This document shows positions 2,686 to 61,841 of a stretch of 64,000 nucleotides of DNA, one piece after another (the stretch's first letter is position 1; each line of letters opens with the position of its first letter). Under the pieces are notes generated by a model. It had not been told where the DNA came from. It saw only the letters and a program-made list of their open reading frames with translations, and searched no databases. The position numbers and the translations under genes were made by a program. The DNA lies in assembly GCA_038728965.1 (NCBI GenBank), contig JAVYSX010000004.1, positions 1,309-65,308 of the forward strand. The letters run 5' to 3'. Origin of the DNA: Thermoplasmatales archaeon (lineage in GTDB: Archaea; Thermoplasmatota; Thermoplasmata; Thermoplasmatales; GCA-001856825).

Positions 2686-3390
2686 TCACCCGGGTATTGT
2701 TGATACTGATGTGGTAGTGGTGGTTATTGCTTGACCGCCGGAAAGATCCGAAGTGTGACCGTATACTGTTGGCCCTACCATCATGGTGGCACTATACATA
2801 TCTTTGGACGAATCATATGAAAGAACGAGGCTCGGAAGGGGATGCGTAGTTGGACCGGTTACCACAGAAAACCCTGCATACGGATCGTACGTGCTCCCGT
2901 GACAGTCGCAGTGTATTTTCCCAGGAAAAGTACCCGAGGACGGCGGATGGTATCTTATCTCCGGCGGAATGCACCCCAGATGCTGGCATATCGCCGAGGA
3001 TGCTACAACAGATCCGTACGGACCAACTCCGGCCGGTGATTTGTAGGTTTGTCCTGTTGCAGGAATCCTAACCAATGTTGAATCGATCTTCACGTCCTTT
3101 CCTGATGAATCTCCGAGCCTGAGCAAGAAATTAGGTTCGTTCTTCAAAGGATAATAAAACTCCACTATCTGGGGGTTATTCACAACAAGGTCAGTAGTGT
3201 GAACAGGATTCCCGTTGGGAAGAGTTAGCAAAAGGGTTGGAAATGAAGTCTCAGACTGGACGGGCGCCGGTAACACATTCTGTACAACACTCCTCAGTGT
3301 TCCTGCGATTCCTGCACCTATGATCAGGATACCCATAATCTTCAAAAAATTTCTCTTCTGCTCGTCCTTAGGATTACTTTGCTCCCCCAA
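2686..3390 (-). CDS. Rieske [2Fe-2S] protein (SoxL/SoxF-like), Tat substrate
   Basis: CQHLGC and CDCHGS motifs; N-terminal KRNFLK plus a hydrophobic anchor. Confidence 0.95.
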   Translation of the reverse strand: MGEQSNPKDEQKRNFLKIMGILIIGAGIAGTLRSVVQNVLPAPVQSETSFPTLLLTLPNGNPVHTTDLVVNNPQIVEFYYPLKNEPNFLLRLGDSSGKDVKIDSTLVRIPATGQTYKSPAGVGPYGSVVASSAICQHLGCIPPEIRYHPPSSGTFPGKIHCDCHGSTYDPYAGFSVVTGPTTHPLPSLVLSYDSSKDMYSATMMVGPTVYGHTSDLSGGQAITTTTTSVSTIPG

Positions 3391-3401
3391 ATCTTCCCAC
3401 C

Positions 3402-4148
3402 TTACGAAACCACATCAACTACGCCAGTCATCCATCCTGCCGTGGCCATTGCTCCGCCCCATCCATCTAGCTCATTCCCGCACGGAACGAAACATTGCCA
3501 AGTATAGGTACCCGTGTTGTTCAGATAGAAATGGGCAACTGTTATTGCACCCCCCGACGGGTTAGAACCAGCGTACGTAGGTATGTTCAGAAGAATTGAG
3601 CCGTCATTGAGGATTGTGAACGTATGTGTAACCTCCCATCCGCCCAGCGTAGCATTCCACGGAAGAGAAGATACAGCCCACCCTTGACCGTGTGATATCG
3701 TTATATTATCTGAGGAATTTCCCGAAAGAGTTGCATTTATGTATTGCGAAGAGCCATTGTAAATGTACTCAACGCCTCCGACCGTGCCTATGACCTTTGC
3801 GTAAGTGGAATTATTTGAAGTTCCATTAGGCCCAATATTGCTGGTAACCCCGGAATCGTAATCTGTAATGACAATAGTAATTAGCTCGTGAGCCGGTAGC
3901 TTGATGAGGGCAGATGACTCTAGCTCTCCATTGGGACCGACAACGAAATAAGCAGGTTGCCTGTGGTGTATCGTTGAATTGTTGAACCAGTTATTCGGTG
4001 AGATCACTAGGAATAATGTTGTGCTTGGCTGGGTTGTTTTTGCGGTGGAAGGTGATGATACTTCCTTGTAGTAAGCAGCTCCAATTCCGATACCTCCAAT
4101 GATCACAATTGCGGCTATAATAGAATAAAGAGCTTTCTCTGATAACAT
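3402..4148 (-). CDS. Membrane-anchored cupredoxin-fold protein (sulfocyanin/CuA-like position)
   Basis: N-terminal TM helix; HTFTI and GTYTWQCFVPCG...M...M at the C-terminus; many N-x-S/T sequons; first gene of the Rieske/cytochrome b operon. Confidence 0.75.
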   Translation of the reverse strand: MLSEKALYSIIAAIVIIGGIGIGAAYYKEVSSPSTAKTTQPSTTLFLVISPNNWFNNSTIHHRQPAYFVVGPNGELESSALIKLPAHELITIVITDYDSGVTSNIGPNGTSNNSTYAKVIGTVGGVEYIYNGSSQYINATLSGNSSDNITISHGQGWAVSSLPWNATLGGWEVTHTFTILNDGSILLNIPTYAGSNPSGGAITVAHFYLNNTGTYTWQCFVPCGNELDGWGGAMATAGWMTGVVDVVS

Positions 4149-10229: not shown

Positions 10230-10255
10230 TTTAACTCTTAATTGAATAAGAGACC

Positions 10256-11224
10256 ACGAAATGCATTGTATGTGGTAATGAAACGACCGACGGGAACTAC
10301 ATATGTGAAGAATGCCGGCGGCCGAAGAGCAAAAACACCGGTCCGGTAAAGGTTAAAATTAAAAAGTGCCCCAACTGTGGAAGGGTGATGCATGTTAACT
10401 GGGACGATATAGACAAATTAGATGTTCCAAAATCAGTTTTGGAAAAGGTCGTCGGCCTTTCGGTTGAGGGAATTACTACGTCTGGGGACGAGAGAAATAT
10501 TAGGGTGTCATACTCAGGCAGATTAATTGAGAACGATGAGAATGTTACGGGAGAACTTATTATTCAAGTTTCATCAGTTACTTGCCCAACCTGCGCGAGG
10601 AAGCTCGGCAACTATTACGAGGCAACGGTACAGATAAGGGGCAGATCCGGGGAGGAAAAGAAAGCGATTGATTATTTGAGCTCTCTTGTTGAAGCCTCTA
10701 AGTCTGAGGGCGTTTTTATAACCAGGGTAGAGCAGAAGAAAGAGGGTTATGATGTTCTACTCTCTGACAAAAAGTTTGCAAGAGCTGCCGCTAAGAAGGT
10801 GATAGAAAAATTTGGTGGGACAACTAAGGAAACTTCTCACCTTGTTGGACTAAAGGATGGCAATGAACTCTATAGGGTCACAATTTCAATCAGAATCCCG
10901 ACCTTTAAAAGAGGGGATGTGATACAACTAGAAAACGAGCTGTTCATGGTGAAGCTTATCAAGGGAGAAACATTGGTACTCCTCAACCTGAAGAGCGGCT
11001 CTGCGCGAAATGTGAAATTCAGGGATCTGAAAGGTTATTCCGTATTCACCGCTAAAGAGCACATAAGGGAGGCAAGGGTGCTTTACAGGCAGGGAAACAC
11101 AGCGTACATTATGGACCCGTTTGATTTTAAGGAGAAAGCCATAATAAATGATGGAAAATCGGACTCAATAAAGGTGGTAAAGGTTGGTGAAGAGCTTATA
11201 GGAATACGTGACTCACTCCTTTAA
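10256..11224 (+). CDS. nmd3: NMD3 family ribosome biogenesis protein; probable ACG start
   Basis: CPTC...GNYYEATVQIRG and LYRVTISIR motifs. The frame is open upstream of the called GTG (10385) to a TAA at 10247 and encodes KCIVCG..ICEEC..KCPNCG. Confidence 0.85.
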   Translation, partial: TKCIVCGNETTDGNYICEECRRPKSKNTGPVKVKIKKCPNCGRVMHVNWDDIDKLDVPKSVLEKVVGLSVEGITTSGDERNIRVSYSGRLIENDENVTGELIIQVSSVTCPTCARKLGNYYEATVQIRGRSGEEKKAIDYLSSLVEASKSEGVFITRVEQKKEGYDVLLSDKKFARAAAKKVIEKFGGTTKETSHLVGLKDGNELYRVTISIRIPTFKRGDVIQLENELFMVKLIKGETLVLLNLKSGSARNVKFRDLKGYSVFTAKEHIREARVLYRQGNTAYIMDPFDFKEKAIINDGKSDSIKVVKVGEELIGIRDSLL

Positions 11225-18467: not shown

Positions 18468-19364
18468 TTATTTTCCACTACCTTTCTTCCAGCCCCTCGG
18501 ATATACACCTTTATCTATGAGGACGACCACAGGTTTGATATTCTCCCCCACCCGGACCCCCATCCCGAGCAGTTCGCCCCTCGGGCTCATTATCCTGACT
18601 GTTTTGCCCTCTCCGTCATCCTGAATTATACCAGTCCTAAATATTGAGGCACCGTGTGCCATCGCGTCGATCGCACTCTCCTTCACCACTACGGTTTTGT
18701 AATCTTTTGTGACCACTTCAGGATCGATTATGATTGAGGAAAGCATTGTCGAATCTCCTTCCCTGTATAACGTTACAGCATCCTTAAGCTTCTGGAGAGT
18801 GACCATAGAAGACTCGTCAAGTGGCCCGCTCCGAGTACGTCTTAGCTCCACAAGGTTGGCTCCAATGAGGAGGGCGTCTCCTATGTCTCGGCACAGTGTC
18901 CTTATGTATACCCCTGATTCAACCTCTGCCCTGAAAAGGACGTAGCGACCGTTCATCTCTAAGAGCTTTAGGGAGTAAATATTTCTCCTTCTAAGATTCC
19001 TCGAGACAGCGGACCTCAGGGGCGGAAACTGATAAATCTCTCCGGTAAATTCCTTCATCATCTCTTGTACGGATTCTCTCCCAATGCTCTGGTGAAAAAT
19101 CATCAGGGCAACATACTCCTTACCCTGCTCGTGCAAGAAATCCGCGAGCCTTGTTGCCTTCTCAAGGCCGACAGGGAGGACACCCGTTGCATTGGGATCT
19201 AATGTTCCGACGTGGCCGGCCTTGGAAACACCCGTTATACTCCTTACCCAAGAAGAAACCTGATGGGATGTTGGCCCCCTGGGTTTGTCAATAACTATGA
19301 AACCGTACGACAGCCTTTCCTCAATGCTCCGTTCCTCCGGACTTTTGCCAAATACCCAGGGCAG
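18468..19364 (-). CDS. cbf5: H/ACA pseudouridine synthase Cbf5; probable CTG start
   Basis: IDKPRGPTSHQV and the catalytic GHVGTLDP lie upstream of the called TTG (19136). The frame closes at a TGA inside GGAGGTGA, and a CTG follows 6 nt after that SD. Confidence 0.92.
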   Translation of the reverse strand: MPWVFGKSPEERSIEERLSYGFIVIDKPRGPTSHQVSSWVRSITGVSKAGHVGTLDPNATGVLPVGLEKATRLADFLHEQGKEYVALMIFHQSIGRESVQEMMKEFTGEIYQFPPLRSAVSRNLRRRNIYSLKLLEMNGRYVLFRAEVESGVYIRTLCRDIGDALLIGANLVELRRTRSGPLDESSMVTLQKLKDAVTLYREGDSTMLSSIIIDPEVVTKDYKTVVVKESAIDAMAHGASIFRTGIIQDDGEGKTVRIMSPRGELLGMGVRVGENIKPVVVLIDKGVYPRGWKKGSGK

Positions 19365-19887
19365 AGATAATCACCTCCACGACGTCCTGAGCACTTATGT
19401 CGCTCGAATCAACAATACTGTTGTAGATAGATTTGTCTGAATAATCTATGCCGTAATACTTGCGATACCTCTCCGCCTCGCTCCTTTCCCTCTCCCTAGT
19501 TTCATTCAGTACGTTCCTCCCCTTTTCACCCGATCTTTCGCTCATGGATGCAATTATCCTTGCAATACGTACATCTTCCCTCGCATCAATAAACACCTTG
19601 AATGCCTCTATTCCGTTGAGGTAGCAAAGCCAACCGGCAAGTCTCGATTCAACGATTATGTTATCCTTCTGCCTCAGGACAGTGAGGAGATAGTCATCCA
19701 TTGATCTGTCTATTTTATCTTGTTCTTCCGCAATTGAGCCTAGCTCCGAAAGACTAATGTTCATTCTTTCTGCCCATTCCCTGAATATCCTACCCCCAAC
19801 AACTAGATCCATCGAGAGCCTGCTGCTGAGTATTTCTGCCACCGTTGTCTTACCGCTACCCGGAGGACCCGATATAGTTATCCTCAT
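19321..19887 (-). CDS. cmk: Cytidylate kinase
   Basis: ITISGPPGSGKTT, ESRLAGW and RYRKYYGID motifs. Confidence 0.94.
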   Translation of the reverse strand: MRITISGPPGSGKTTVAEILSSRLSMDLVVGGRIFREWAERMNISLSELGSIAEEQDKIDRSMDDYLLTVLRQKDNIIVESRLAGWLCYLNGIEAFKVFIDAREDVRIARIIASMSERSGEKGRNVLNETRERERSEAERYRKYYGIDYSDKSIYNSIVDSSDISAQDVVEVIISALGIWQKSGGTEH

Positions 19888-25369: not shown

Positions 25370-25765
25370 TTATTTCACCTCGTTGAGAACTCTTATTCTT
25401 TTCTGTTTAGCCTCTTCCTGTATCTCGATCCTCTTTCTTCTCCCCACCGCTGAGCTTATCCTAACTGCCTGCGTGGTCCCGTCGATCCCCTCCAGATCTT
25501 TAATGTTGGTAACGTACCTCTCTTCAAAACCTGACGGGTGGAGTCCTCTGACCTTTCTAGGGCCCCGGTAGCCGGAATCAACGAATGCCTGCCTGTAACC
25601 TCTCTTTTCCCTCAACTTAGAATGCTTCCCTCTGGGTTTTCTCCAGCTATCGCCTAACTTCCTATATCTGAACCATTCCTGCCTGTGGAATTCTGGCCTT
25701 TTCCTGTTCATCCTATTCCTGATATTCAGGAGTCTCTGAGTGTCCTTATCCAGATTAGCCTTCAA
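25370..25765 (-). CDS. rpl32e: 50S ribosomal protein L32e
   Basis: WRKPRGKHSK and RGLHPSG motifs. Confidence 0.97.
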   Translation of the reverse strand: MKANLDKDTQRLLNIRNRMNRKRPEFHRQEWFRYRKLGDSWRKPRGKHSKLREKRGYRQAFVDSGYRGPRKVRGLHPSGFEERYVTNIKDLEGIDGTTQAVRISSAVGRRKRIEIQEEAKQKRIRVLNEVK

Positions 25766-26315
25766 TTATATCACCTTTCTTAACGATGTATATTCCATCC
25801 TGGAATACCCTGGGGTCAAATCCCTTTATCTTGCTCATCCTCTCTATCTTGGCTGCAGCATTTCCAAGGATTTCGAGATTGCACCCCTCTATGGTTACTA
25901 TGTCCCCCTTAACGGATACTTTCACGTCACTAGGTACGGAAATAACCCTAGCGCTCTTCTCCCCCAAAAAGTTATCGAGCATTACCTGATTCCCCTTAAC
26001 AGTAACTTTGACGGGGAAGTGGGCATATACTATCTTCATCGTATACACAAATCCCTTGGTTACGCCAATGAGAGCACTTTCTATGATACTCCTCCAGGTT
26101 CCGACGATTGCGAGATCAGGCCTTTTGTCCCTCAGGAGGTATATGTTGATCTTACTGTCCTTTATATCAAGCTTCGCGTATTCGTACTTGAAATTTTTGA
26201 GCACCTGACCTTTTTTACCTTTTATCTCGAGCGAATAGTTATGGAGAGCGACGCTAACACCTTCAGGTATATCCAGGGGGATCACCCTAATTGGTGTTTC
26301 AGTAGACGAACGCAA
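25755..26315 (-). CDS. rpl6: 50S ribosomal protein L6 (start uncertain)
   Basis: IPEGV, YAHFPV, NFLGEK and DPRVFQDGIY motifs. Confidence 0.95.
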   Translation of the reverse strand: MRSSTETPIRVIPLDIPEGVSVALHNYSLEIKGKKGQVLKNFKYEYAKLDIKDSKINIYLLRDKRPDLAIVGTWRSIIESALIGVTKGFVYTMKIVYAHFPVKVTVKGNQVMLDNFLGEKSARVISVPSDVKVSVKGDIVTIEGCNLEILGNAAAKIERMSKIKGFDPRVFQDGIYIVKKGDIIEG

Positions 26316-26682
26316 GTGCCCTCCCCCCTATGCCTTTTTTCTTAGCCTCTGAATTGCTAACGACCCCTGCTGTGGTTGTAATTACCAGTATACCTATATC
26401 TTGCGCTGGAAGGTACCTCGATTCCCATTTTTCCATTTCATCCTTCTTTATTGAAAACCTTGGCTTTATTACACCGCAGTTGTTTATGGTCCTTGATATC
26501 CTCACACGGAACAGACCACCCCTTCCATTTTCTTCATACTCAAATTCCTCGATGTAACCGTACTTCTGGAATATTTTCAGCACGTGCCCTACTAGGTTGG
26601 ATGCCTTGACATCGACCTCTTCCCTTCCTAGTTTGCTTGCGTTACGTATTGCCACCAGTGCCTCGTTCAATGTATCTCCCAT
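26299..26682 (-). CDS. rps8: 30S ribosomal protein S8
   Basis: INNCGVIKPRF, YLPA and GIGGRALAFVY motifs. Confidence 0.96.
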   Translation of the reverse strand: MGDTLNEALVAIRNASKLGREEVDVKASNLVGHVLKIFQKYGYIEEFEYEENGRGGLFRVRISRTINNCGVIKPRFSIKKDEMEKWESRYLPAQDIGILVITTTAGVVSNSEAKKKGIGGRALAFVY

Positions 26683-28908: not shown

Positions 28909-29229
28909 TCACACCACCTTCTCCACGACTACGAATGAAACTGACTTTGCTATTGGCCTGGCATAAGCAATCTTGACCCTGTCCCCCAACGATACGTGAA
29001 TACACGGCGGCATGTGAGCGTGATATTTCCTTCTTCTTTTCTCGTACCTCTCATATTTCTCGTTCTTTTTCAAATACTCCCTAAGGATCGTGACTGTATT
29101 TTTCATGGAGATAGAAATTATCTTCCCCTCTATTATTGGGGATTTAACATTTAGCTCGCCGTGGAACGGGCAGTTTCTGTCCGTGCACTCTTCATCTGGC
29201 TCCTTAACCTCAATTCCTATGTTTCTCAT
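28909..29229 (-). CDS. rps17: 30S ribosomal protein S17
   Basis: CPFHG, KYERYEKRR and HAHMPPC motifs. Confidence 0.96.
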   Translation of the reverse strand: MRNIGIEVKEPDEECTDRNCPFHGELNVKSPIIEGKIISISMKNTVTILREYLKKNEKYERYEKRRRKYHAHMPPCIHVSLGDRVKIAYARPIAKSVSFVVVEKVV

Positions 29230-29483
29230 CTGTGTCCTCTCCTCCTCGCTTTCTTCATCTTTTCTTCAGGTCTAATCTTGATCTTTTCAATAAGCACCTC
29301 TCGTCCAGAGATTAGCAATATCCCTCGTGTCTTTGGAACGACCTTGTCCCCCCTCTCTGTTGAAATTACCAGAATATTCTTCCTCTCGTCCAGGCAGGTC
29401 CCTCTTAGACCAATGAACGTTCTATCGGTATGTTTCAGAATTTCAACATTCGCGCCTATGATATCTGTCAAATACGGATTCAC
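29226..29483 (-). CDS. rnp1: RNase P protein component 1 (Rpp29/Pop4)
   Basis: IG..VEI.......G.RG...DE.KN and RPEE motifs; operon position. Confidence 0.88.
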   Translation of the reverse strand: MNPYLTDIIGANVEILKHTDRTFIGLRGTCLDERKNILVISTERGDKVVPKTRGILLISGREVLIEKIKIRPEEKMKKARRRGHR

Positions 29484-29770
29484 TTTTCCACCTCAACCTT
29501 AAATCCAAGTTCCTCCAGTACCTTCTTTACCCTCTCCCTCTGGTCTCCTTGCAGCTCTATCTTTTCATCCTTCACCGTTCCCCCCGTTGCCGTTTTCTTC
29601 TTTAGAGTTTTCGCGAGCTCCTTTATGTCCTCAGTGTGCGAATCAAATCCAGATACAATGGTAACAAACTTTCCGTACCGTCTCTTGTCAGTCTCGATCT
29701 TGATGACCTGAGACTCTCTTGCTATCTCATCTAGAGGTGTGAGTTCCTTGAAAATCTTGTCGTCCCTCAT
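29480..29770 (-). CDS. sui1: Translation initiation factor aIF1 (SUI1)
   Basis: KRRYGKFVTIVSG, GGTVKD and IELQGDQRERV motifs. Confidence 0.95.
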   Translation of the reverse strand: MRDDKIFKELTPLDEIARESQVIKIETDKRRYGKFVTIVSGFDSHTEDIKELAKTLKKKTATGGTVKDEKIELQGDQRERVKKVLEELGFKVEVEK

Positions 29771-29967
29771 CTTTGCGTCTCCCTCATAACAGTCTCAACT
29801 CTTGCTATCTGTCTCTTCAATGATTCAATCTTACCTGGGCTAGGTGGCGCGCCCCCCATCGCAGAAATACCCCTTTCCCTCATTAGTTCCTCCTTCATCT
29901 CTAAATACTTCTTCCAGAGTTCATCTTTATTCATTTTCCTTATGTCCTTCGCCTTCAGCTCCTCCAG
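29767..29967 (-). CDS. rpl29: 50S ribosomal protein L29; probable CTG start
   Basis: Not in the ORF track: (L/M)EELKAKDIRKMNKDEL...GGAPPSPGKIESLKRQIARVETV. GGAGGTGA, then 6 nt, then CTG; in-frame TGA inside the SD. Confidence 0.93.
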   Translation of the reverse strand: MEELKAKDIRKMNKDELWKKYLEMKEELMRERGISAMGGAPPSPGKIESLKRQIARVETVMRETQR

Positions 29968-30577
29968 GGTTGCTCACCTCCTTAAGTTGAATCCTAGAAA
30001 CATTTATGTCGTCAGGCAACTTGATGTCGTTTCTCAGGATCTTCACTGAGACACCAATAATCCCGGGCTTGGTCGTGGCGATAGCGTAGCCCTTATCAAT
30101 ATATTCCGAGGGGTTTCCTGAAGATATGACCTTACCGGCAGTGTATTTCACGCTTCTGGCTCTCTCTCCCGTCAGCTTTCCTCCCATTCTAATCTGACCC
30201 CCTCTAGCGCCCGCATCCATTATCCTCTTGAGGATGCTATGGCCTGCTCTTCTAAAGTGCCATCCCTTCTCGATCGATCTGGCAAGCTTCTGCGCCATGA
30301 TCTGGGCGCTAAGTCCGGGCTCTTGCATTCCCTCAACCTTAATGAGAGGGCTGGCAAGATTGAATTTCTTTTCCAATGTTATTTCCATGTTCTTTATCTT
30401 TGAACCTTTCCTTCCTATAACGAGGCCTGGCCTTTCCACCCTCAGGAGAACTATAGTATTCTGGGGTGTCCTCTGTATCTCCACCCCTCCGAAGCCGGCA
30501 TCCCATATTTCTTGAACAAGGTACTCCTTTATGAGCTGTCTCCTTATATTCTCCTGCAGAAACTTCAGTTCCTTCAT
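29927..30577 (-). CDS. rps3: 30S ribosomal protein S3
   Basis: RPGLVIGRKG, FRRAGH and GKLTGERA motifs. Confidence 0.96.
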   Translation of the reverse strand: MKELKFLQENIRRQLIKEYLVQEIWDAGFGGVEIQRTPQNTIVLLRVERPGLVIGRKGSKIKNMEITLEKKFNLASPLIKVEGMQEPGLSAQIMAQKLARSIEKGWHFRRAGHSILKRIMDAGARGGQIRMGGKLTGERARSVKYTAGKVISSGNPSEYIDKGYAIATTKPGIIGVSVKILRNDIKLPDDINVSRIQLKEVSNPGGAEGEGHKENE

Positions 30578-52836: not shown

Positions 52837-53776
52837 ATGAGGATCACCCAGCGGGACTATGAGTATTTCCGTGACTCCATCGATTATATGGCAAGCTACA
52901 GGGGGGAATTCTCTTTACCAGTTACCACTGACTGGAAGGAATATGAGTTCCTCTATAAGAGGATGAAGAACATGGCACTGGAGCTGAGATCCATGGTAAA
53001 TGATGCATGAATTTTTGTTGATGAATTTGGCAGGCATCCACTTCTTGAAGCAAAAGAGAAGGTATTCATAATCCTGGTAAAGGAGATATTCCGTCTGAGC
53101 AACAGGAAGGCAGCATACCTTCTTCCACTCCTGGGAATAGAGAAGGATATAAGTTACAAAACTGTAGAGAGGCTGTATTCAGACCCTCTTTTAATATGCT
53201 CAACAACCTGTTCGTCACTTCCTAAAAAGAAGAATATCTTCCGTAGATGCATCCGGTGATGGAACAGGCTATTCCATCACTGTAACGAAGCACCACTATT
53301 CAATAAGAGGGACGGCGAATCATCGAAGGAAGGCAGGTTCGTCTATTCCTTCGCTTCATGGATATTAATACGAGGATGTATGTCTGTTATAAGTGACTAT
53401 AAGATCTGAGATGCGTATCACAAGGCTCTCGATATGATAGGTAGGATGCGTTTGGATCTCAAAAGCGTCAGACTGGACAAATACTACTCAGGACAGAGCA
53501 TTCTTAAATGTTTCAATGAGAACACGAGGATATTCATAATCCCTAAGAGCAACTCAAGGATAAGGGGAAAAAGGTGTGGAGGGATATCATAAGAAAGTTC
53601 ATCGATGACCCGATGAACTATCTGAGGGAATACTTCAAGAGGAATGCTTCTGAGTCAGGATTCTCATCCGATAAGAGAACAACTGGAGGTCTTATATATC
53701 AGAGAAGGAAAGACAGAAGAGAATCGTAAGGATTTTGCAAGGGACGCCTTCACAATCTTATGCTTTTACATGGCTA
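52837..53776 (+). pseudogene. Transposase pseudogene (in-frame stop plus several frameshifts)
   Basis: Fragments MRITQRDYE..., ISYKTVERLYSDP, DASGDGTGYS, VRLDKYYSGQS and YFKRNASESGFSSDKR across more than one frame; TGA at 53008. Confidence 0.88.
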
Positions 53777-60284: not shown

Positions 60285-61016
60285 TTATCTGAACATCAGG
60301 AAGGAAGCTATAGAGAATGAGAAAAGTGTAGCGAAGAAATTTACACCGTACTTTGTCAGATAACCTCTGTTTTCCAGGATCTCGCCCAGGATCGAGTCGA
60401 ATATAGAACCGGCGAATGATAACAGTGAGGCCAGGATTATGAAGTAAATAAGATCCTGAAAAGGAATGAAGCTTGAGATGCCGAATATTGTGTAACCGAT
60501 GAAAGAGAACAGGAGAGGGAATATTAAGGAAACAGTGGTTCCCAGAACAGAGATCCCACCGTTTATCCCGGTTTCCACTGGTTTCAAAGTTAATATCAAG
60601 TACGTATTTTCTTGTAGGGACCCTATCTCTGATGCAGCTGTATCTGCCAGGATCACTCCCAGTGCGACCATGTAAATGAAGAAAACAGTTCTGTTGCTCA
60701 CCCCCCACAGGAGGAGCAGAGAGGCAGCCGCGGGTATCAGTCCTGCAGCCAAAACGTTCCTTGCCCCCCTCTCCCCCCTTATTCCCTCCTGTAATTTTCT
60801 CCTATTTTTCTTTTCAAACCCTGCAAGGGTAGATATGTATGAAAGACCCAAGAAGAGGAACAACATCACGAAATATAGCCAGCCCCCGCCAATAATGATG
60901 ATGGCTCCCACGGCGGCGGATGCTATGGCACCAGTTCTGCTGAATGCCTTTAATTTCAGACCCGTGTAAAAGAGGATAGGTATTAAAATGAGGAGCCACA
61001 GGTTACTTTCATTCAT
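60285..61016 (-). CDS. DUF92 (TMEM19/VTE6-like) membrane protein
   Basis: RGARNVLA, ADTAASEIG, G.NGGIS..G and DSILG motifs. Confidence 0.9.
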   Translation of the reverse strand: MNESNLWLLILIPILFYTGLKLKAFSRTGAIASAAVGAIIIIGGGWLYFVMLFLFLGLSYISTLAGFEKKNRRKLQEGIRGERGARNVLAAGLIPAAASLLLLWGVSNRTVFFIYMVALGVILADTAASEIGSLQENTYLILTLKPVETGINGGISVLGTTVSLIFPLLFSFIGYTIFGISSFIPFQDLIYFIILASLLSFAGSIFDSILGEILENRGYLTKYGVNFFATLFSFSIASFLMFR

Positions 61017-61097
61017 ATCTCAAGTCCGATTCTAAAATGTTATAAATCCTTTGAGCCTGATTTACATAAAAGATTATTAGTTATTTCACAATTCTCA

Positions 61098-61841
61098 TTG
61101 GTGCCCAGAGAACAGATCAGGAAATGCCCTGTCCACGGGTATTACAGGGGAATTAACTGCCCCCAATGCGGGGAGGAGGGGAAATTCATCCTCTCTGAGG
61201 AGGAGGTAGACCTATTGGGCAGAACAATAACTAAGATATTAAGGCACAGACCTGAAAAATACCATCTGGAAGTGAATGATAGGGGTTATGTGAGCATTGA
61301 CGAGATGGTTCAGGAGATCAGGTTTTATAACAGAAGGCTACACTTCGTAGGATCATCTCATATATTTGCTGTGGTTCTAACGGATGATAAGGGTAGGTAT
61401 CAGATTTCGGAAAACAAGAGATACATTAGGGCAACGTATGGGCATACCATAGAAGTTGATCTCTCTGATCTCCCGACAGACGGAATACCTGAAATTCTGT
61501 ACTATCCTACTAACAGGGAGGAATACGAGATTCTGAAAGAGAATGGAATATTGCCATCCGACAGGAGATGGGTACACCTATCAAACTCTAAAGAGAAAGC
61601 TTATATAGCGGGACTTTACCATTTCGACGCCCCTCTCCTGGTCCCTATAAGGAGTGAAGTTGTGAATGAGATGGGTGAAAAGATCTACCGGGCAGGCCAG
61701 CAGGTATTCATATGCAAATTTGTCCCCCCAGAGAGCATGCTAGAACCTGAGGAATTTGAGGGGACGATAGACGGTGAGACAATAGAAGAGATCAAGATTT
61801 CAAAGGGGAAGAGAATAAGGGGAAAACAAGAGGGCTGGTAG
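61098..61841 (+). CDS. kptA: RNA 2'-phosphotransferase Tpt1/KptA with N-terminal Zn ribbon
   Basis: ILRH.P, DDKGRY, IRATYGHT and R.WVHLS motifs. Confidence 0.92.
   Translation: MVPREQIRKCPVHGYYRGINCPQCGEEGKFILSEEEVDLLGRTITKILRHRPEKYHLEVNDRGYVSIDEMVQEIRFYNRRLHFVGSSHIFAVVLTDDKGRYQISENKRYIRATYGHTIEVDLSDLPTDGIPEILYYPTNREEYEILKENGILPSDRRWVHLSNSKEKAYIAGLYHFDAPLLVPIRSEVVNEMGEKIYRAGQQVFICKFVPPESMLEPEEFEGTIDGETIEEIKISKGKRIRGKQEGW

Follow-up and report, generated by a model that had tools for sequence, protein, structure and literature searches.

The stretch of DNA analysed here, 64,000 nucleotides of a Thermoplasmatales archaeon (contig JAVYSX010000004.1 of assembly GCA_038728965.1, positions 1,309 to 65,308; hereafter, the window), carries a gene for the ribosomal protein uL29, rpl29, with the codon CTG at the position where relatives have a start codon. 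The open frame of rpl29 occupies 29767..29973 on the minus strand. It runs from the codon after an in-frame TGA (29976-29974) to the stop codon TGA (29769-29767), and its product matches the Pfam family Ribosomal_L29 (PF00831) with 58.4 bits against a cut-off of 24.5, over profile positions 1-56 of 57. The TGA that opens the frame lies within a Shine-Dalgarno (SD) sequence, AGGAGGTGA (29982-29974), which consists of the core GGAGGTGA (29981-29974) and a preceding A. This SD is complementary to the 3' end of the 16S rRNA of the sister genome G001 (...GGAUCACCUCCU), and pairing over nine nucleotides is possible with the SD AGGAGGUGA. A spacer of six nucleotides, GCAACC (29973-29968), separates the SD from the CTG (29967-29965). 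After the TGA, the frame reads GCA ACC CTG GAG GAG CTG AAG GCG AAG GAC ATA AGG AAA ATG, which includes a second in-frame CTG at 29958-29956. The ATG at its end (29934-29932), 11 codons 3' of the first CTG and codon 14 of the open frame, is the earliest ATG, GTG or TTG in the frame, and its Met codon is the rival start site.

The gene upstream is rps3 (uS3; 29927..30577, minus strand; Pfam KH_2 and Ribosomal_S3_C). Its stop codon TAA (29929-29927) lies 5 nt beyond the internal rpl29 ATG, as ATGAATAA. The 3' end of rps3 overlaps the start of rpl29 by 41 nt in a different frame, and both the SD and the start of rpl29 are contained in the rps3 coding sequence. A first-pass annotation of this DNA had described the SD, the spacer GCAACC, the CTG and the TGA inside the SD, and the arrangement is present exactly as described. 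It had also placed the conserved N-terminus of the protein before the first ATG. No canonical start is found there, and the CTG occupies the orthologous start position.

The protein that would be made from the CTG has 66 amino acids. Its residues 4-64 align with residues 4-64 of a solved archaeal uL29, 9nri_BW, and the archaeal uL29 chains 1s72_V and 6skf_BZ give similar matches in the same register. In length as well as in register, N-terminus included, the product from the CTG fits the uL29 chains of solved archaeal ribosomes. Position 1 of the L29 profile aligns five residues upstream of the internal ATG.

The rpl29 start codon among relatives

Of 40 matching genomes of the same order, 30 supplied an rpl29 locus, the codons of which were read; the other ten matches were without the locus. 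The comparison set comprised 24 loci of the same family, among them that of this genome (G000), and six outgroup loci. Within the family, the start register holds CTG in two loci, those of G000 and the sister species G001, TTG in four, GTG in two, and ATG in 11. A further five loci start with ATG after a rearranged upstream region, which brings the total for ATG to 16 of 24. Thus, 17 of the other family loci have a canonical ATG, TTG or GTG in the register of the CTG, an agreement beyond what chance would give, and ATG stands at or near the start position in all six outgroup loci.

A tree was built with FastTree from concatenated Cbf5 and Nmd3 proteins of 26 genomes. On this tree, TTG occurs within the clade (G011,(G016,(G000,G001))) and CTG is confined to G000 and G001, the Nmd3 proteins of which are 90% identical. 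Because TTG occurs in the surrounding clade and CTG only in these two species, a single T-to-C change from TTG to CTG accounts for the pattern. Judged by this distribution, the CTG is the ancestral start codon after one change in the common ancestor of G000 and G001. On the same grounds, it is a recent change in two species that outlasted their split, and not a conserved trait of the family.

Over the 50 nt that separate the SD from the internal ATG, G000 and G001 are identical (0 of 50 differ), a figure that comes from one species pair and a short stretch. In the flanks of this stretch, 23 of 150 nt differ upstream in rps3 and 11 of 160 downstream in rpl29. Genus-wide, the L29 residues encoded in the overlap are conserved and the overlapping C-terminal tail of S3 is variable, so that the L29 frame is the main source of the constraint. 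The 9-nt SD of the CTG species is also present in TTG and GTG relatives and has not been strengthened. Starts other than ATG are usual in this operon, where 8 of the 26 other cluster genes of G000 have them (GTG in five, TTG in three), and in 22 of the 68 gene families of the window, five species of the genus do not all share one start codon.

Near-cognate codons at other conserved start positions

The closest counterpart in this genome is cbf5 (18468..19378, minus strand), in which GGAGGTGA at 19378-19371 is followed by a 6-nt spacer, TTATCT, and by CTG at 19364-19362. The first canonical start of cbf5 is codon 79, inside the TruB_N domain, the match to which begins at codon 43. Since cbf5 has this geometry and no canonical start until codon 79, this organism would have to initiate from an SD followed after six nucleotides by CTG. 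In 18 loci of the genus, the codon positioned by the SD is CTG in 12, ACG in three, ATG in two and GTG in one, so that CTG or ACG is present in 15 of 18. The six family loci from other genera have CTG in one, GTG in two and ATG in three. That no codons other than single-mismatch ones occur at that position argues for its being read as a start. Among the outgroups, a canonical start is clear in five of six loci, the sixth (L060) being ambiguous. On the tree, CTG looks ancestral to two genera, and ACG appears to have arisen twice, each time beside an ATG or GTG lineage. In the codons before the first canonical start, cbf5 of G000 and of G013, a species of the same genus, differs 14, 10 and 48 times at codon positions 1, 2 and 3, respectively, as in coding sequence. 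The cmk and cbf5 genes overlap by about 44 nt (19321-19364, minus strand), and the SD and start of cbf5 lie inside the upstream coding sequence, as at rps3 and rpl29.

A second gene of the window, nmd3 (10230..11224, plus strand), has ACG at 10256-10258, and its first canonical start in G000 is codon 46. The sequence ACG AAR TGY ATH is present in all 23 family loci that include the N-terminus, one further locus being cut by a contig end. This ACG stands at the position of the outgroup ATG (six of six loci), two codons before the first zinc-knuckle cysteine. A GTG is found two codons upstream in 4 of the 23 family loci and in none of the other 19. No SD was found before nmd3. Instead, in all 19 genus loci (L064-L082) the ACG is preceded at exactly 26 nt by a TTTWAN hexamer, the promoter-like TTTAAC at 10230-10235 in this genome. 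It directly follows the upstream gene's stop codon, and the 20 nt between hexamer and ACG are variable. Judged by the usual position of archaeal TATA boxes, the hexamer looks like a promoter at a constant distance, and the mRNA would accordingly be leaderless or nearly so. To our knowledge, a leaderless mRNA that starts on ACG has not been described for any organism. In G001, G013 and G016, nmd3 is preceded at about 11-13 kb by a 16S rRNA gene (L255-L257); the G000 contig (C4) ends about where this gene is expected, and the gene seems to be unassembled.

Both the CTG of cbf5 and the ACG of nmd3 had been listed beside rpl29 in the first-pass annotation. They are real, and they are conserved far more widely than the rpl29 CTG.

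Outside the window, the gene for the proteasome-activating ATPase PAN (contig C15, 9060-10241, minus strand) has ACG six nucleotides after GGTGA as its only plausible start. The arrangement of GGTGA, 6 nt and ACG AAG ACN GAY GAY is found in 24 of 24 family loci, and the six outgroup loci have ATG. In 21 of the 24, there is no canonical codon within two codons of the ACG, and the first canonical codon downstream ranges from codon 9 to codon 83 across the family (codon 18 in G000). PAN is also preceded, in G000, by a TAAATAA word at a distance of about 38 nt. What the sequences show for these genes is that the start positions are homologous and the codons conserved, together with the geometry of the SDs and the overlaps between genes.

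How common such codons are was gauged by a census in which stop-to-stop frames of 50 codons or more from G000 were compared with about 1.63 Mb of G013, over 685 ortholog pairs. The census left out frames open at contig ends, lower-scoring overlapping frames, and pairs below 40% identity or 60% coverage, and it misses near-cognate starts that have a canonical codon within about five codons. Within this scope, a near-cognate codon is the only one at the conserved start in four of the 685 genes of G000: cbf5 and rpl29 with CTG, and nmd3 and PAN with ACG. Near-cognate starts are therefore rare (about 0.6% of the genes examined) and too few for a test of enrichment. The codons are not random, since each is one mismatch from AUG. 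Canonical starts in G000 have SD spacings of 3-8 nt by the same measure, which the 6-nt spacing of rpl29 and cbf5 (SD of 8-9 nt) and of PAN (GGTGA) fits.

In G013, the near-cognate codons include ACG in cbf5 and in PAN. A zinc-ribbon gene has AAGGTGA-N6-ACG in G013 (L225-L243 region), as against ATG in G000 (C3, 3707-4682), and such exchange of ACG and ATG between sister species recurs in several genes. A gene of the Cgi121 family (a KEOPS subunit, PF08617), outside the window on contig C13 (2656-3064 in minus-strand scan coordinates), has AGGTGA-N6-ATC in G000, where its start is ambiguous, with GTG and ATG 8-9 codons later. The G013 gene has AGGTGA-N6-ATT, and its first canonical codon is codon 38. 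It had been suggested from the window that rpl29, cbf5 and nmd3 belong to a set of ribosome genes with non-AUG starts. The conservation of the near-cognate codons of cbf5 and nmd3 bears this out in part, but PAN and the zinc-ribbon gene of G013 lie outside ribosome functions.

Most of the early census flags (143 of 456 pairs, and later 40 and 42 among the 685) were explained away. Some reflect overlap with the upstream gene, with differences concentrated at codon position 1, and others reflect a shared ATG preceded by promoter or untranslated sequence that is itself conserved, or a canonical start shifted by one or two codons. An apparent non-canonical start of rpl6 (25755-26327) resolves to TTG or GTG, and each of two apparent CTG starts in G018, in orthologues of the window genes at 2686-3414 and 60987-61841, has an ATG or GTG next to it. 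The ACG codons of a RecJ-like, a HemB-like and a NifU-like gene in G013, labels that we take from a reading of the N-terminal sequences, are ambiguous, a canonical codon being 3-6 codons away. Scans of the genome for an SD followed by any codon were too noisy, since most SD-like words lie inside genes, and were replaced by the ortholog comparison. The 37 filtered combinations of spacing and codon that they gave (several sites being entered at two spacings) included three with CTG and three with ATT, and were not decisive.

The translation apparatus itself offers no obvious explanation. The initiator tRNA identified by a tRNA scan is ordinary, with a CAU anticodon, A1:U72 and three G:C pairs, and no initiator-like tRNA with a CAG or CGU anticodon was present among the 29 tRNAs found in this genome, which is 61% complete. 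No lineage-specific cause was found in the initiator tRNA or in the loop motifs of the archaeal initiation factor aIF1. The whole family seems to tolerate or use single-mismatch starts on a few genes: ACG on nmd3 and PAN, CTG or ACG on cbf5, and CTG on rpl29 in two species. These starts probably set low rates of translation.

That bacteria and eukaryotes can initiate at near-cognate codons is in itself well known. In eukaryotes, such initiation has been described at CUG and ACG (PMC3105428). The same two codons dominate here, where the evidence is their conservation at orthologous start positions, but their context is of the prokaryotic type, either SD-led or leaderless. In their accounts of start codons, reviews of archaeal initiation list AUG, GUG and UUG only (PMC4705826, PMC7531240). 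Ribosome profiling of Haloferax volcanii assigned about 30% of putative alternative start sites to near-cognate codons, and these were set aside as possible false positives (PMC7261190). Such sites suggest that archaeal ribosomes may use near-cognate codons, but none is shown in that account as the conserved sole start of a core gene. Across 36 prokaryote groups, switches to CUG were counted at 2 of 61,358 AUG starts and at 1 of 2,468 UUG starts (PMC5622118). A search of the literature outside subscription papers turned up neither a report of archaea with conserved CUG or ACG starts nor one of an aIF1 feedback loop, and conserved archaeal starts of this kind appear to be new. Gene callers assume that archaea use AUG, GUG and UUG only. 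If the near-cognate codons are used, core genes of this family, namely cbf5, nmd3, PAN and, in this genome, rpl29, are being truncated or called pseudogenes in annotations, and archaeal ribosomes with an ordinary initiator tRNA and aIF1 would accept CUG and ACG, the two codons that eukaryotes accept best. The genes would then be natural substrates for probing the proofreading activity of aIF1, and they would raise the question of how ACG works on an mRNA that looks leaderless.

Probable use of the CTG as a start codon

That initiation occurs at CTG or ACG, with what efficiency, and whether aIF1 plays any role, we infer from sequence comparison. For rpl29, the 9-nt SD is retained 6 nt upstream, and initiator Met-tRNA most likely still reads the CTG, less efficiently than before. 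Use of the CTG is favoured by the control that cbf5 provides in the same genome, by the strong constraint on the stretch between SD and internal ATG, and by the attribution of this constraint to the L29 frame. Taken together, these points make it fairly likely that the CTG serves as the rpl29 start. The fuller explanation, in which a TTG start changed once to CTG, the initiator Met-tRNA still reads this codon behind the retained SD and 6-nt spacer, sui1 follows by an overlap that the family has in any case, and the family tolerates near-cognate starts on a few genes, seems somewhat probable.

Several points weigh against this explanation. The internal ATG, 11 codons downstream and 5 nt before the rps3 stop, has a position of the reinitiation type, from which an L29 of 55 amino acids could be made. 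In Escherichia coli reporters, CUG gave about 1-2% of the initiation obtained with AUG (preprint 10.1101/063800), an efficiency that seems hard to reconcile with a ribosomal protein needed in stoichiometric amounts. The lack of differences over 50 nt is the result of one species pair and a short stretch. Leaderless mRNAs are reported to be far more selective for AUG (PMC8459731), so that nmd3, which looks leaderless and lacks an SD, is not readily accounted for by simple near-cognate pairing and is the hardest case to explain.

The first of these points underlies the best-surviving alternative, in which the CTG is a dead start and L29 begins at the internal ATG (29934), minus 11 N-terminal residues, by termination-reinitiation after rps3 at ATGAATAA. 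A start and a stop 5 nt apart are typical of such a layout, tight coupling is supported by work on short overlaps (PMC6728339; PMC10666635), and the poor performance of CUG in E. coli (10.1101/063800) points in the same direction. However, relatives that have a canonical upstream start have an identical internal ATG and rps3 stop, and nothing new marks this ATG as a start in the CTG species. In the Pfam L29 profile, as in the solved archaeal uL29 chains, the protein starts before the internal Met, and the 50 nt upstream of this ATG are the same in G000 and G001. Moreover, cbf5 suggests that an SD followed after 6 nt by CTG is usable in this genome. A start at the internal ATG is therefore considered unlikely, if still worth serious consideration.

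The overlap with sui1 and the proposed feedback loop

At its 3' end, rpl29 overlaps sui1, the gene for aIF1 (29480..29770, minus strand; 96 amino acids; Pfam PF01253, 84.9 bits). The sui1 ATG (29770-29768) shares the sequence ATGA (29770-29767) with the rpl29 stop TGA (29769-29767), and the SD of sui1 itself amounts to GGAG only (29782-29779), 8 nt before the ATG. The first-pass annotation had reported both the ATGA overlap at 29767-29770 and the weakness of this SD, and both are confirmed. Next in line, a gene for a protein component of RNase P (Rpp29/Pop4 family; 29226..29483, minus strand; Pfam PF01868) overlaps sui1 in turn, through GTGA.

The overlap of rpl29 and sui1 is present in all 24 family loci, whatever the start codon of rpl29. 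It takes the form of ATGA in 21 loci and of an 11-nt overlap in three, in which rpl29 ends 7 nt later, within sui1. In all 24, sui1 starts with ATG, and its GGAG (within AGGGAG or AAGGAG) keeps a spacing of 8 nt from the ATG in 21 loci; in three (G020, G022 and G024), the spacing is 7 nt. The sui1 leader of the CTG species is the same as that of their relatives, with no strengthened SD. Outside the family, two outgroup families have sui1 beside rpl29 with about 30-40 nt between them; another has it at a distant place on the chromosome, and one outgroup family has a second copy of sui1.

In aIF1, the motif DKRRYGK is invariant in 29 of 30 aligned sequences, the remaining one, from G026, reading DRRRYGK. 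In aIF1 of Pyrococcus abyssi, the residues R31, Y32 and K34 of the basic loop 1 bind the 30S subunit and mRNA (PMC6237735), and the G000 residues were equated with these by motif only, not by structural alignment. In the 30-sequence alignment, no change in the loop motifs tied to relaxed stringency was found between the family and the outgroups.

These features had given rise to the proposal of a feedback loop, in which aIF1 rejects CUG, sui1 is translated by ribosomes that have finished rpl29, and a high level of aIF1 consequently lowers its own synthesis. Together with cbf5 and nmd3, rpl29 would form a ribosome regulon tuned by start-codon stringency. The architecture is indeed present in this genome, with its CTG start, ATGA overlap and weak sui1 SD, and the near-cognate starts of cbf5 and nmd3 are conserved. 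Furthermore, gene pairs with ATGA are translationally coupled in Haloferax volcanii (PMC6728339), and in vitro, archaeal aIF1 distinguishes between AUU and AUG and makes incorrect initiation complexes less stable (PMC4705826, PMC6237735).

The comparison across the family nevertheless speaks against the loop. By the terms of the proposal, conserved near-cognate starts upstream of sui1 would support it, and AUG in the orthologues would tell against it. The orthologues mostly use ATG, which starts rpl29 in 16 of the 24 family loci, as against CTG in two. In addition, the overlap with sui1 is independent of the rpl29 start codon, and the rpl29 SD is unchanged in the CTG species. Non-ATG starts are ordinary in the operon (8 of 26 other genes), PAN and the zinc-ribbon gene also have ACG, so that the set is not specific to the ribosome, and sui1 has its own GGAG at a usable spacing. 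On this comparison, the loop is refuted as a conserved device and finds no footing as a selected circuit; as originally put forward, it is improbable. At best, it could be an accidental property of the two CTG species. Because the ATGA overlap is present whatever codon starts rpl29, any dependence of aIF1 on the CUG start in these species would be a by-product of the family-wide overlap of rpl29 and sui1. The idea of aIF1 feedback is attractive, yet conservation gives it no support, and the near-cognate starts found throughout the family are of more interest than the rpl29 codon that first drew attention.

A broader form of the idea would be that the family runs a regulon governed by start-codon stringency. 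Selected ACG and CUG starts on nmd3, cbf5, PAN and a few other genes would let initiation fidelity, that is, the level or activity of aIF1, set the output of ribosome biogenesis and proteostasis. The aIF1 gene would be part of a loop where rpl29 has CUG, and nmd3 would be a leaderless mRNA starting on ACG. As it stands, such a regulon is unlikely.

Control of this general kind is known elsewhere. Bacterial IF3 autoregulates through the AUU start of infC. The likeness lies in a fidelity factor whose synthesis would fall as fidelity rises, by way of a non-canonical start. However, the odd codon is here in the upstream gene and in 2 of 24 relatives, aIF1 is unrelated to IF3, and the present case is known from sequence. 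In eukaryotes, eIF1 and eIF5 autoregulate by start-site stringency (PMC3326321). Since aIF1 is the homologue of eIF1, the same idea of a stringency-sensing loop applies, but eIF1 has a poor context at its own AUG, whereas sui1 has an ATG with a 4-nt SD and an overlap with rpl29 across the 24 family loci. As for coupling, termination-reinitiation at ATGA overlaps has been described in Haloferax volcanii (Huber et al. 2019, PMC6728339). The ATGA shared by rpl29 and sui1 and the GTGA shared by sui1 and the Rpp29 gene resemble these cases, as far as sequence goes. In contrast, the overlaps of rps3 with rpl29 and of cmk with cbf5, at about 41-44 nt, are not the short overlaps that were studied there.

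Two further explanations concern the codons themselves. C-to-U editing of mRNA, by which plant organelles create start codons, would convert CUG into UUG and ACG into AUG. It would fit the observation that nearly all of the odd starts have a C that is interchanged with T between sister species (CTG and TTG in rpl29; ACG and ATG in cbf5 and in several pairs of G013 and G000), and it would also account for ACG on the leaderless-looking nmd3. However, this pattern is equally expected from single transitions between canonical and near-cognate codons, and the Cgi121-like gene, with ATC in G000 and ATT in G013 after AGGTGA-N6, is beyond repair by editing. We know of no mRNA editing in archaea, and this explanation is very unlikely. 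Finally, a fault in the assembly or consensus, or decay of the gene, might be suspected in a metagenome-assembled genome that is 61% complete, lies in 33 contigs and has a broken gene elsewhere in the window (53011-53729), but this is scarcely credible, given that the CTG is common to two separately assembled species genomes, the rpl29 frame is intact, and the near-cognate codons of cbf5, nmd3 and PAN recur in 15 to 24 genomes. The broken gene at 53011-53729 (plus strand) consists of three short open reading frames in different frames, all of which match one 351-codon frame of G013 with about 82-85% identity. The pieces are without a Pfam match and look like a frameshifted or decaying gene.

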